Origin: Clostridiales bacterium
GTDB taxonomy: Bacteria > Bacillota > Limnochordia > Darwinibacteriales > B1SED10-159
Length of the DNA stretch: 53,499 bases
Reading direction: 5' to 3'
Assembly: GCA_003551965.1 (NCBI GenBank)
Contig: PUOC01000206.1
Location: 1-53,499 of the forward strand
The position numbers and the translations under genes were made by a program. The stretch's first letter is position 1. The number at the start of each line of letters is the position of its first letter. Under the pieces are notes generated by a model. That model saw only the letters and a list, made by a program, of their open reading frames with translations, searched no databases and was not told the origin of the DNA. This document shows positions 23,498-45,448 of the stretch, one piece after another.

Positions 23498-23521
23498 ATG
23501 GGAAATAACTGCATCATACAC

Positions 23522-23788
23522 GAAAGGCCATGACGGAGAGGAGTAGGTATAGTCATCCTCTTAGCGAGCTAGAAGACGGTGAAAGTCTAGCAGGAAGCTA
23601 TGCTGAACGCAGCTCCCGAGCTTCGTCTCCAACGGCTCAGCCCCCGGGCTGCTTAGTAGAGAACGACGTTTCCTTACGTTACAAAGGCACAGTATGTCTG
23701 TACTGGTTGAGGTGAGCTTTTTTAAGCTAACAAGGGTGGTACCGCGGAGTAAACTCCTCCGTCCCTTTTTGGGACAGAGGAGTTTTTT
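23522..23788 (+). ncRNA. T-box riboswitch, probable alanine specificity (specifier GCA)
   Basis: Stem I with GA motif, AGTA/GAA S-turn, AGCGA box and GGTGAAAG loop. T-box AAGGGTGGTACCGCGG at 23732-23747. Terminator AAACTCCTCCGTCCC/GGGACAGAGGAGTTT plus T tract. Specifier loop GAACGCAG closed by GGAG/CTCC. Confidence 0.93.
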
Positions 23789-23837
23789 GCTGCCTTTTAA
23801 TACTGACTTCGAAAATCTTGAGAAAGAAGGTTTTACC

Positions 23838-25085
23838 ATGTTCAAGAAGTCTTCTAAGCTCAATCACGTGAGTTACGCGATTCGCGGACCTATTTTGGAA
23901 GAGGTGCAGAAGCTGGAGCAAACAGGCCAGTCTATCACGAAATTGCACATCGGAAATCCAGCCCCTTTCGGATTTCAGGCACCGCCGGCTGTCCTGCACA
24001 AACTGCAGCAGACCTTGGAATACGCCCAAGGATACAGCGATTTTCGAGGCTGTGCCGAGGCGTGCAGTGCCATTGCCAGTTACTACCGGCGTTTGGGCAT
24101 CCATGGCGTGAGTGAAAACCATGTCTATACCGGCAATGGAGTCAGCGAATTAATTCTCATGTCCATGCAGGCCCTTTTGAATGCCGGCGACGAAGTCCTG
24201 GTTCCGGCGCCGGATTACCCCCTTTGGACTGCGGCCGTCACCCTTGGCGGAGGCACGCCGGTGCACTACTGCTGTGATGAAACCGCCGATTGGGCGCCGG
24301 ACCTGGCAGACATGGAAGCAAAGATCAGTTCCCGGACCAAGGCCATCGTCATTATCAACCCCAATAACCCCACCGGTGCCGTGTATTCCCGTGCGGTCCT
24401 GCAGGGAATTGTGGACTTGGCTGCAAAACACCAGCTGGCAGTCTTCAGTGACGAAATCTACGAAACCATTGTCTTTGACGATGCAGAGCATATTCCAACG
24501 GCTTCTCTGTGCGATGACGTGTTCTGTGTAACATTGTCCGGTCTGTCCAAGTCGCACTTCTTGGCCGGCTATCGGGCGGGATGGATGGTTGTCAGCGGAG
24601 CTCTTGAAACCGGCCTGGACTACATGCAGGGACTCAATATGCTGGCCTCCATGCGTCTGTGCAGCAATGTGCCGGCCCAGCACACCATCGGGGCGGTAAT
24701 GGAGCATCGCAACCAATACCGTGACGAATTTCCCCGGGAGCAGCTGACGCGCCAGCGGGACTTGGTCTGGCAAAAACTCAATGCCATACCGGGAATTTCC
24801 TGTTCAAAGCCCCAGGGCGCTTTCTATGCTTTCCCGAAAATGGACTGCAAGCGCCTCGGGATACACAGTGACGAACAATTCGTCCTCGATCTCCTGCGGG
24901 AAAAGCGTATCCTGATCGTACAGGGAACGGGTTTTAACTGGCCCGAGCCGGATCACTTCCGAATCGTTTTTCTCCTCAATGAGCAAGACCTAGGCGCTTC
25001 CCTCGACGAGCTCGGCGATTTCCTGCAGAGCTACTGTCAACAATCCAGCATAGCCTCGCCCAAAACCGCGGCCCTGTCCCGGTGA
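23838..25085 (+). CDS. alaA: Glutamate-pyruvate (alanine) aminotransferase, class I/II, AlaA type
   Basis: SSKL..VSY.IRGP, LHIGNPAPFGF, GNGVSELI, PDYPLWTAAV, INPNNPTG, SDEIY, GLSKSH..AGYRAGW and SMRLCSNVP motifs. ATG at 23838, after the T-box terminator. Confidence 0.88.
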   Translation: MFKKSSKLNHVSYAIRGPILEEVQKLEQTGQSITKLHIGNPAPFGFQAPPAVLHKLQQTLEYAQGYSDFRGCAEACSAIASYYRRLGIHGVSENHVYTGNGVSELILMSMQALLNAGDEVLVPAPDYPLWTAAVTLGGGTPVHYCCDETADWAPDLADMEAKISSRTKAIVIINPNNPTGAVYSRAVLQGIVDLAAKHQLAVFSDEIYETIVFDDAEHIPTASLCDDVFCVTLSGLSKSHFLAGYRAGWMVVSGALETGLDYMQGLNMLASMRLCSNVPAQHTIGAVMEHRNQYRDEFPREQLTRQRDLVWQKLNAIPGISCSKPQGAFYAFPKMDCKRLGIHSDEQFVLDLLREKRILIVQGTGFNWPEPDHFRIVFLLNEQDLGASLDELGDFLQSYCQQSSIASPKTAALSR

Positions 25086-42864: not shown

Positions 42865-43236
42865 TGTACGGATGCTCCTTTGCTTTTTTGCGAATATCGG
42901 CCTCATAACATGAAAACTCACGGATTCCGCCAGCATGGCTTTGGTTTATAAGCGAATTTCCTTTAGGGTTTAGCTAACTTGTATTCTCGCTCCACAGCGA
43001 AATCCCTTGAACCTTTTTGTTACTTTTTCGTAAGAATCCTATGTTTTTTGCACAAATACCCAGAGACCGAAAAGCCCGGCCATGGAGGATCACCGCCGCA
43101 TGGCAGCGTGCCGTATACTCGTCCGGCCTATGCACCCCCTATGAATTTCTCCAGCGGGAAGACGATTATCGCAAGGGCGGGCCGAGAGGCTGGCCAAGAT
43201 AACTTCCCATGCAGCCCAGAAACACGAAATTCGCCA

Positions 43237-43265
43237 TTGACAAATGGCATCATTATGCATATAAT
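43237..43265 (+). promoter_or_regulatory. Consensus promoter of the leader-aroF unit
   Basis: Perfect TTGACA-17 nt-TATAAT. Confidence 0.85.
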
Positions 43266-43295
43266 TATGGAACTAACAGAAAGGGCGGGCGTGTT

Positions 43296-43406
43296 ATGAC
43301 TGCGAAGCAAACACCTACCCAGCAATACGGACTGTCGTCAAATCGATTCCGCTTCTTTACCAGCCGGGGCTTTTTTAGCGCCGGCTATTCGAAGTTGAAT
43401 CGATGA
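43296..43406 (+). CDS. Putative Phe(/Tyr)-rich leader peptide of aroF (36 aa)
   Basis: MTAKQTPTQQYGLSSNRFRFFTSRGFFSAGYSKLNR: 5 Phe in residues 18-27 and 2 Tyr. Purine-rich GAAAGGGCGGG upstream. Lies between the promoter and a terminator that precedes aroF. Confidence 0.65.
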   Translation: MTAKQTPTQQYGLSSNRFRFFTSRGFFSAGYSKLNR

Positions 43407-43465
43407 TTAGCTCTTCCGTATTCGTATAAGAAAGCGGCGCAGCCTTTCACATCTGCACCACCCAC

Positions 43466-43494
43466 GGGAGACTTTGGACAAAGTCTCTTTTTTT
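43466..43494 (+). terminator. Attenuator (intrinsic terminator) upstream of aroF
   Basis: GAGACTTT-GGAC-AAAGTCTC followed by TTTTTTT, about 30 nt before the aroF start. Confidence 0.8.
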
Positions 43495-43526
43495 GTTTCT
43501 ATACATCAAATTGGGGAGGTATCAGC

Positions 43527-44585
43527 ATGGTTATTGTCATGAAACCCGGTGCACCGCAAAGTGAAATGGAAAAACTGAGTAAGAAGTTCGAATCCATGGG
43601 TCTGTCGGTCCATCCAACCATTGGAGAAAACTACTCCATTCTAGGTCTTGTGGGAGACACCCAGCTTCTCACAGAAAGCGAAGTGGCGGCCAGCAGCAGC
43701 TATATCGATCGCATCATCCGCGTGCAGCACCCCTTTAAACTGGCCAGCAGACTGTTCCATCCAGAGGACTCCGTGATTGACGTGGAGGGCGTTAAGATAG
43801 GTGGCGGGAATCTCACGTTTATCGCCGGCCCCTGCGCGGTCGAAAGCCGCGACCAAGTCTTTGCCATTGCCGAGCAGGTAAAAGCGTCGGGAGCACACAT
43901 GCTGCGGGGCGGTGCCTACAAACCGAGAACGTCCCCTTACAGCTTCCAAGGTCTGCAGGAAGAAGGACTGCAGATCCTCAAAGAAGCCAAGGAAAAAACC
44001 GGCATGCCCATCGTTACGGAAATTATCACCCCCGATTTGGTGGAGCTCGTGGCTGATTACGTCGACGTTCTCCAGGTAGGGGCGCGCAACATGCAAAATT
44101 TTTCGCTGCTGCGCACCGTCGGCCAGACAAATAAGCCCATTCTACTCAAACGGGGCATGTCTGCAACCATTGAAGAGCTGATCATGGCGGCCGAGTACAT
44201 CATGTCGGAGGGCAACCCCAACGTCATCCTCTGCGAACGGGGCATTCGCACCTTCGAGACCTATACAAGAAATACACTGGACATCAGCGCTATACCCGCC
44301 ATCAAGGAGCTGTGTCACCTGCCAGTCATTGTGGATCCAAGCCACGCCGCCGGACGCTGGCATATGGTGGAACCGTTGGCCAAGGCTGCCATTGCCGCCG
44401 GAGCCGACGGTCTGATCGTGGAAGTGCACCACAAACCCGATGAAGCGCTGTCCGACGGAGCACAAAGCCTAAAGCCAGAAAAGTTCAACCGCCTGATCTC
44501 TGCCGTCCGTCAGATCGCAGCCATTGATGAGGATGTGCATCACCGGCATGTACCAGCCCAGGTGCGGGACAACGGGCTGCGTTGA
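43527..44585 (+). CDS. aroF: 3-deoxy-D-arabino-heptulosonate 7-phosphate (DAHP) synthase, type I-beta with N-terminal ACT-like domain
   Basis: [53 protein letters not shown] and SDGAQSL motifs. Confidence 0.95.
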
Positions 44586-44599
44586 GAGGAGAGAACGCT

Positions 44600-45448
44600 T
44601 TGGAACAGCATTGGCATAGCATAATCAGTCAGCAGTGGATCGCCGACAACCTAGACAGCGACACATTGATACTGGCAGACTGCCGCTTTTCTCTGGCCGA
44701 CAGCGGTGAAGGGCGCAGGCTTTACCAAGAGGGCCATCTGCCCGGAGCCTATCACTTCGACCTAGAACAAGACCTTTCGGGCCCTCTGCAGGCCCATGGG
44801 GGCAGACATCCCCTGCCGGATCCGGAATTGCTGGCGGGAAAACTTCGCCAAGTAGGCATTGATGAACAATGCCTCGTTGTCGCCTATGATGACCAGCTCG
44901 GTGCCGGAGCGGCGCGGTTTTGGTGGCTGCTGCGGTATCTGGGGCATGGCAACGTCGGCGTCATGGACGGAAGCTTTGATCTGTGGGTACGGCAGGGATA
45001 TCCTGTCAGCACGGATATTCCCCATTCCAAGCCTGCACCCTTCGCCGCCCATGTCCAGCCGTATCGAAAGGCAGAGGTTGACGATGTTCGGAAGCAGGTA
45101 CCGAACGGCAAAGCAATCTTGGTGGATGCCCGGGAAGCTACTCGATTTCAGGGAATCGAAGAGCCGATTGATCCCAAAGCCGGACACATCCCCGGCGCCG
45201 TAAATGTGTTTTGGAAAGACAATGTGGACAGCCAAGGACGCTGGCACTTCCATGCCGTGAAAGATATGGCACGGCATCTGTCTCCTGATCAGGAGATCAT
45301 TGTATACTGTGGATCAGGCGTGACAGCCTGCCCCGTCATTCTTGGGTTCGAAGAACTGGGTTTCACCCATGTCCGGCTCTATGCAGGCAGCTGGAGCGAT
45401 TGGATCTCCTATCCGGACAACCCGGCCGCCGGCCTCGGGCAGACATAG
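44600..45448 (+). CDS. Tandem-domain rhodanese / 3-mercaptopyruvate sulfurtransferase
   Basis: GHLPGA, GGRHPLP, AARFWW, VDAR...RF.G..EP.D..AGHIPGA, YCGSGVTAC and LYAGSWSDW motifs. TTG start at 44600 (RBS GAGGAG) or at 44582. Confidence 0.9.
   Translation: MEQHWHSIISQQWIADNLDSDTLILADCRFSLADSGEGRRLYQEGHLPGAYHFDLEQDLSGPLQAHGGRHPLPDPELLAGKLRQVGIDEQCLVVAYDDQLGAGAARFWWLLRYLGHGNVGVMDGSFDLWVRQGYPVSTDIPHSKPAPFAAHVQPYRKAEVDDVRKQVPNGKAILVDAREATRFQGIEEPIDPKAGHIPGAVNVFWKDNVDSQGRWHFHAVKDMARHLSPDQEIIVYCGSGVTACPVILGFEELGFTHVRLYAGSWSDWISYPDNPAAGLGQT

Follow-up and report, generated by a model that had tools for sequence, protein, structure and literature searches.

The window, by which we mean the whole stretch of DNA analysed here (53,499 nucleotides (nt), contig PUOC01000206.1 of the Clostridiales bacterium assembly GCA_003551965.1), carries the gene aroF behind a leader that holds a promoter, a short upstream open reading frame (uORF), and an intrinsic terminator (Table 1). 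The gene product, a 3-deoxy-7-phosphoheptulonate (DAHP) synthase, matches NF006421 at 517.5 bits and, over its full length, the PDB entries 4grs and 1rzm. The uORF would encode the peptide MTAKQTPTQQYGLSSNRFRFFTSRGFFSAGYSKLNR, in which five Phe residues fall inside FRFFTSRGFF (codons 43347-43349, 43353-43358, and 43371-43376) and are joined by two Tyr residues (codons 43326-43328 and 43386-43388). A longer, 65-codon version of this frame (ATG at 43209) was rejected because its start precedes the promoter. An earlier interpretation, made from the letters of this DNA alone and called here the sequence-only reading, had proposed a ribosome-mediated Phe attenuator in front of DAHP synthase in an organism that also uses T-boxes. 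The perfect promoter, the 36-codon frame with its Phe and Tyr codons, the AGCCGG..CCGGCT hairpin inside it, and the T7-tailed terminator ahead of aroF that it listed are all present, the hairpin being the tip of a longer one. The host is indeed a user of T-boxes, with 16 matches in its genome, 13 of them above the Rfam cut-off.

Table 1. Positions of the aroF leader elements and of aroF in the window
Feature	Position	Strand	Details
Sigma-70-type promoter	43237..43265	+	TTGACA 43237-43242, 17-nt spacer, TATAAT 43260-43265; score 12/12
Purine-rich stretch AAAGGGCGGG, putative ribosome-binding site	43280..43289	+	6-10 nt upstream of the uORF ATG
Leader uORF	43296..43406	+	ATG 43296, 36 sense codons, TGA 43404-43406
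Region 1, anti-antiterminator strand	43322..43331	+	Pairs with 43415-43425; -10.3 kcal/mol; 8 nt perfect
Long hairpin over the Phe codons	43342..43404	+	-33.0 kcal/mol
Conserved core hairpin, tip of the long hairpin	43362..43386	+	AGCCGG 43362-43367 : CCGGCT 43381-43386; -17.7 kcal/mol
Region 2, antiterminator 5' strand AGCUCUUCCGU	43409..43419	+	Supported by fold, duplex energy, and family covariation
Region 3, partner of region 2, ACGGGAGACU	43464..43473	+	Overlaps the 5' arm of the terminator
Intrinsic terminator	43466..43494	+	Hairpin 43466-43489, 10 pairs, loop of 4; T7 43488-43494
aroF, DAHP synthase	43527..44585	+	DAHP_synth_1 (PF00793) and N-terminal ferredoxin-like domain (PF18152)

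The leader combines a uORF with its own start, a cluster of aromatic codons, a terminator, and an antiterminator that is mutually exclusive with that terminator. Specifically, TCTTCCGT (43412-43419) in region 2 is complementary to ACGGGAGA (43464-43471) in region 3, with a duplex energy of -11.9 kcal/mol, and the two strands are paired in the minimum-energy fold once the 3' arm of the terminator is omitted. The terminator has energies of -10.4 kcal/mol as a hairpin fold and -15.0 kcal/mol as a duplex of its arms. Both of these structures were in the sequence-only reading, which had left out a further one, the pairing of region 2 with the anti-antiterminator strand (region 1) that lies within the uORF. 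In Escherichia coli attenuators, region 1 pairs with region 2, regions 2 and 3 form the antiterminator, and regions 3 and 4 form the terminator. Since 1:2, 2:3, and 3:4 pairings are all found here, the leader has the architecture of a classical attenuator. The fold of the leader as a whole has a z-score of -4.7 when compared with 200 shuffles.

Leaders of this type recur in front of related genes. We examined the 500 nt upstream of 18 full-length aroF homologues, among them both copies in the genome of the window (its own and a second one, G000:C199) and one from the sister genus (G001). Ten of the 18 loci have a homologous uORF of this design, in frame and rich in aromatic codons, with a terminator behind it. 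The sequence-only reading had advised looking for such uORFs before aroF, and they keep their frame there, with an ATG and a purine-rich putative ribosome-binding site, across families and phylum-level groups. Nine of ten aligned leaders from relatives also carry TTGACA and a TATAAT-like box in the same place, and the tenth is cut by a contig end. Among the remaining eight loci, one has a T-box immediately upstream of aroF (L016, in G026), one has a short leader with a terminator only (L014), and six are without such a leader. In this short leader (G013:C45), some 90 nt upstream of aroF, a promoter and a GAGACT…AGTCTC terminator are retained without an aromatic uORF, and it may be a decayed attenuator. 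The leader peptides of the family align around F..FFSWGYYFSAGYF (alignment A1, 18 sequences), and the profile from this alignment matches the window uORF with an E-value of 1.0e-6 in a search of its own genome. The leader DNA itself is found in one other genome of 41 related genomes, and the AroF protein in 39 of these 41.

Three pairings, those of the core hairpin, the antiterminator, and the anti-antiterminator, covary among the 27 leaders on which we assessed them. All 27 have a terminator, and each has, close to where the uORF ends, a strand complementary to the 5' arm and loop of the terminator in the same leader; the window and its closest relatives carry this strand directly past the stop codon. 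The paired sequences differ from leader to leader (CUAAAAG:CUUUUAG, CCAAAAG:CUUUUGG, CGAAAGG:CUUUUCG, CUAAUGAG:CUCAUUAG, and ACAUGAG:CUCAUG, with AGCUCUUCCGU:ACGGGAGACU in the window). Antiterminator strands pair with their own partners at -11.94 kcal/mol versus -9.35 ± 0.46 kcal/mol with swapped partners, and none of 20000 permutations is as good. The anti-antiterminator pairing behaves in the same manner (-13.39 versus -9.53 ± 0.53 kcal/mol, again with 0 of 20000 permutations as good). Moreover, the antiterminator strand occurs in all three reading frames among family members, so that it is read as LMS in some peptides and as xNE in others. Thus, this strand is conserved as RNA and not as peptide. 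In the core hairpin, 98.3% of cells in the 27-leader alignment are paired and four pairs are changed on both sides, a level that none of 500 shuffles reaches; sliding the partner strand lowers pairing to 16-54%. The aromatic codons lie in and before this hairpin, which separates strands 1 and 2.

We therefore read the aroF leader as a ribosome-mediated (leader-peptide) attenuator, and as a derived, Phe-biased member of an aromatic leader-peptide family that extends across the Firmicutes. We put the probability of this reading at roughly 85%. The comparison, through uORF conservation and pairing covariation, lends support to what the sequence-only reading had proposed. The elements, their conservation, and their covariation are properties of the sequences themselves, and from them a sequence of events can be predicted.

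In this model, transcription would begin at the perfect promoter and the uORF would be translated as RNA polymerase advances. With plentiful charged Phe-tRNA, the ribosome would proceed to the TGA at 43404 and cover most of region 2 (43409-43419); alternatively, region 1 (43322-43331) would re-pair with region 2 after the ribosome is released. A blocked region 2 would permit the terminator (43466-43489 plus the T7 tract) to form, and transcription would stop ahead of aroF. When charged tRNA-Phe (and, to a lesser degree, tRNA-Tyr) is scarce, the ribosome would instead stall at the Phe codons between 43347 and 43376, inside the long hairpin, and region 1 would be masked by stalled or queued ribosomes. 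Region 2 would then be free to capture the 5' arm of the terminator (43464-43473), and polymerase would read through into aroF. In the absence of translation, the 1:2 pairing together with the terminator should make termination the default outcome. The idea in the sequence-only reading that a ribosome at the stop codon masks the antiterminator strand agrees with the spacing, as region 2 begins 5 nt past the first base of that codon, a position that a terminating ribosome would be expected to occupy.

The same conserved structures could be explained if the core hairpin and its alternative pairings formed an untranslated RNA switch that binds a protein or a small ligand, with the open frame merely incidental. 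Such a switch would fit the conservation of the core stem as RNA: Ser is encoded there only by AGC or AGT and never by TCN, Gly is encoded by GGC or GGT even in AT-rich genomes, and compensatory changes occur on its two sides (UGG to UUG with GCU to GCA, and UGG to CAA with GCU to GUU). The frame independence of the antiterminator strand would fit it as well. However, none of the 27 leaders analysed has a stop in this frame within the aromatic core, all have an ATG and a purine-rich site, and a purine-rich stretch likewise precedes the ATG in the 18 leaders of alignment A1. Differences in hairpin-loop length are of three or six bases, that is, multiples of three. The codons between the stem arms are mostly TAT, TTT, or TAC, with synonymous variation between TAT and TAC (some alignment rows being mis-registered), whereas the stretch 5' of the hairpin is rich in aromatic codons yet variable in sequence. 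The leader also matches no Rfam family and has no TRAP-type triplet array. On this evidence we consider an untranslated switch highly unlikely.

If translation is accepted, the product of the uORF might itself be what matters, either as a functional small protein or, in the manner of TnaC, as a nascent chain that responds to free aromatic amino acids from within the ribosome tunnel. The peptide core, which is rich in F, Y, and W, is unusually conserved for a leader peptide (SWGYYFSAGYF), as would be expected of such a product. Where this core does change, for example from W to L, Q, or R together with A to V or T, compensating bases nevertheless keep the RNA stem paired. Thus, the stem explains much of the peptide conservation. 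The C-terminal part shows no peptide conservation, no Pfam or NCBIfam family matches, and the frame always lies between a promoter and a terminator, ahead of shikimate-pathway genes. Biosynthetic genes are expected to be induced by shortage, and stalling at codons gives this response directly. Either role for the peptide itself seems to us highly unlikely. The chance that there is no regulation at all, and that a random short frame happens to lie between a strong promoter and a leaky terminator, is negligible. Clusters of at least five Phe per ten residues number 177 in the six-frame translation of the genome (7.73 million residues), and the chance expectation for one in the 231-nt leader is 0.005; in addition, the element is conserved in hundreds of genomes and the three pairings covary. 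By these comparisons, the leader element is conserved both as a coding frame and as RNA.

Several considerations nonetheless weigh against ribosome-mediated attenuation at this locus. Equilibrium folding with a 30-nt ribosome footprint masked at every codon reproduced no switch: the complete terminator always wins in these scans, the pairing of its 5' arm is nearly independent of ribosome position, and long-range pairings dominate. This outcome is expected of a kinetic device, and the scans lend the model no support, so that its basis is kinetic and comparative. A ribosome stalled at the first Phe codon of the window would have a footprint that stops just short of region 1, and blocking of the 1:2 pairing would presumably require a trailing or queued ribosome, or steric hindrance. 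At a sister locus (L004), the antiterminator strand is located about 15 nt past the stop codon, where a terminating ribosome could barely reach it; this leader has a strong 1:2 pairing (-21.4 kcal/mol) whose strand 1 abuts the first Phe codon. The p-values for the antiterminator from shuffles of single loci are modest (0.002-0.59), and the family sequences compared are related and hence non-independent. Finally, translation of the uORF and its response to amino acids are steps that we infer from sequence.

Two structural observations concern the leader RNA more generally. The core hairpin is followed by UAUUUU (43362-43392 for hairpin and tract in the window), and this arrangement appears terminator-like to an automatic finder in L008, L009, L061, L099, L153, and L166. 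We speculate that polymerase pauses at the core hairpin and UAUUU, which would keep it coupled to the ribosome. In the full-length fold, the ribosome-binding region of the uORF (43287-43297) is paired with approximately 43440-43462, just 5' of the terminator.

Regulators of other kinds were sought at the same locus. The T-box model (RF00230), the same one that finds the 16 genomic sites, gives no match in 42930-43600 at E <= 10. With the remaining Rfam families, the window leader yields three unrelated matches at chance level (E 2.5-9.4), and five other family members yield none at E <= 1. No model among the amino-acid leaders of Rfam (Phe, Trp, His, Leu, Thr, and leu/phe) matches the leader. 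Leaders regulated by TRAP feature a series of (G/U)AG triplets with spacers of 2-3 nt; the 255-nt leader has four such triplets, none of them in series. No family in Rfam, Pfam, or NCBIfam matches the leader or its uORF, and consequently annotation pipelines miss it or label it a hypothetical protein.

The sequence-only reading knew of no described case, and in this respect it has been overtaken by two published candidates. The uORF-13 motif, for which 336 unique examples are tabulated, has its type in an intergenic region of Clostridium novyi NT and is listed for Bacillales, Clostridiales, Thermoanaerobacterales, and three Negativicutes orders, including Selenomonadales and Veillonellales (Stav et al., 2019, BMC Microbiol 19:66, PMC6429828). 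The genes recorded downstream are those for 3-deoxy-7-phosphoheptulonate synthase and other shikimate enzymes, and Phe and Tyr are given as notable in the uORF (PMC6429828). The family described here resembles that entry in its position before DAHP synthase and shikimate genes, in its F- and Y-rich uORF, and in its occurrence among Firmicutes that include Clostridium, Pelosinus, and Megasphaera. Furthermore, the sole match of profile A1 in genome G545 (C1:2308985-2309110, minus strand), which is followed by a terminator and aroF, falls inside the published coordinates and strand of the uORF-13 type region, a correspondence of coordinates rather than of the authors' alignment. Because of this match, we regard the window leader as very probably a member of uORF-13. 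It departs from the catalogued motif in being shorter, with its stop codon placed ahead of the antiterminator strand instead of behind it, and in being Phe-biased and without a Trp codon (CGG in place of TGG). The uORF-13 record consists of a table row and a consensus drawing, and the three covarying pairings are not described in that row or in the figure legend.

The second candidate, uORFC-13-1, is reported from Acholeplasma and environmental DNA only, with 24 examples (Brewer et al., 2021, RNA Biol 18:2417, PMC8632094). Its uORF is described as containing Phe codons and as accompanied by a promoter, a ribosome-binding site, an additional base-paired substructure, and a terminator next to it, exclusively before aroF (PMC8632094). 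By these descriptions it resembles the window leader in layout and differs from it in its Acholeplasma host range. A precedent with experimental support is the aroR-aroF attenuator of Corynebacterium glutamicum, in which a Phe-Tyr-Phe leader peptide precedes a DAHP synthase operon and transcription rises on Phe limitation (Neshat et al., 2014, as reported in PMC11802643). This system belongs to the Actinobacteria, and the comparison is made at the level of description. The classical leader-peptide attenuators are pheL-pheA and trpL-trp of E. coli (PMC11802643). The window leader has in common with them the four-strand logic, a leader peptide that contains the regulatory codons, and a stop codon close to region 2. 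In contrast to these, the regulatory codons of the window leader fall within and ahead of a distinct, conserved hairpin that stands between regions 1 and 2 rather than in region 1, a mix of aromatic amino acids would be sensed, and there is no match to an Rfam leader family. T-boxes (RF00230) perform the same task, a choice between terminator and antiterminator that depends on tRNA charging, but they bind tRNA directly, whereas the window leader would sense charging through a translating ribosome. Full-text searches of the non-subscription literature found no experimental study of the Firmicutes leader family. The window leader is not new in kind, as its family is catalogued and its mechanism is that of textbooks; the copy in the window is new and somewhat derived. 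As a discovery it is modest, since the motif already stands in a supplementary table.

The family is nonetheless widespread. A profile search of 1.84 billion cluster representatives gave 153 matches at E <= 0.001. The best 150 include 148 open reading frames of 35-122 amino acids that share the core motif. Named hosts, from a scan with a degenerate DNA pattern for the core that gave 8 true members among at least 120 loci listed, are Clostridium tyrobutyricum, Pelosinus, and several Megasphaera. Whole-genome profile searches recovered the leader peptide, ahead of aroF or another shikimate gene, in 8 of 41 genomes of the order to which the window belongs, in 11 of 401 from a phylum sample, and in 90 of 196 scored genomes, nearly half, of the family with the C. 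tyrobutyricum record; at class level the peptide was found in 8 of 95 genomes. Outside the order, seven of nine loci in the phylum sample have a terminator and then a DAHP synthase gene; the other two are a locus truncated where its contig ends and a false match with an internal stop. Across the window's own genome, none of the other aromatic-rich small open reading frames resembles the leader family.

Where a genome has more than one copy, leaders also stand before genes for prephenate dehydrogenase, shikimate dehydrogenase, a DAHP synthase of a second type, and a shikimate-kinase-like protein, and a third copy in G001 (L163, G001:C311:2589-2711) precedes the 3-dehydroquinate synthase gene aroB. 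Some genomes of the family holding the C. tyrobutyricum record have up to five copies before different aromatic-pathway genes (loci L216-L222 and L223-L242 among them). A divergent leader in a Megasphaera metagenome-assembled genome (L093, positions 649-771, with the segment SWGCFWSGVGYF) has a terminator and is followed, to judge by eye, by an ACT-domain-like gene and not by aroF; its best antiterminator pairing is no better than those of shuffles (p 0.59).

The second aroF in the genome of the window, 64% identical to the first, has a homologous leader that is Tyr-rich (segment YFTFCSWGYYYGAGYFAY, at G000:C199:7481-7615; L033 1282-1431) and that carries a terminator and the covarying antiterminator CCAAAAG:CUUUUGG. 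Both this genome and that of the sister genus G001 contain two aroF paralogs, with 82% and 78% identity within each type and 64% across types. The core of the window leader contains five Phe, one Tyr, and no Trp, and its F/(F+Y) ratio of 0.83 is equalled or exceeded in only 4 of 147 family members. The corresponding core of the paralog contains three Phe, six Tyr, and one Trp, and its ratio of 0.33 is as low in only 13 of 147. The same split between Phe-biased and Tyr-biased leaders is seen in G001, where the aroB copy is Tyr-rich and, like the window copy, has CGG (Arg) at the position of the family Trp codon. T-boxes in the genome of the window lie before trpE, trpS, tyrS, and pheS. The biased paralog leaders, viewed with these T-boxes on trpE and the aromatic tRNA ligases, suggest that each isozyme may have its own sensing, set by the codon content of its leader.

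How might this division have arisen? We tentatively propose, at somewhat less than even odds, that an ancestral leader with mixed Phe, Tyr, and Trp codons split after aroF was duplicated, to yield a Phe sensor for the isozyme in the window and a Tyr sensor for the second isozyme, the latter serving aroB as well in the sister genus. Among multi-copy genomes of the family holding the C. tyrobutyricum record, we saw no clear tendency for leaders to favour Phe or Tyr according to the gene that follows. In E. coli, isozyme-specific control by end products is allosteric and repressor-based. If our proposal is true, control of this kind would be achieved purely through the codon content of homologous leader peptides. 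More broadly, a genome rich in T-boxes appears to use classical leader-peptide attenuation as well, at the entry step of aromatic synthesis. Two types of sensor for tRNA charge would thus share one pathway, T-boxes acting at trpE and the aromatic tRNA ligases and leader peptides at the two DAHP synthases.

Two further features of the window can be added. A T-box (123.8 bits) at 23521-23769 precedes a class I/II aminotransferase gene (23769-25082) whose best NCBIfam matches, all below cut-offs, are to aminotransferases of the alanine and the tyrosine/nicotianamine families. Downstream of aroF, a gene for a rhodanese-domain protein (44582-45448; top NCBIfam match 3-mercaptopyruvate sulfurtransferase, under the cut-off) has a TTG start that overlaps the aroF stop codon, and this gene may be co-transcribed with aroF.

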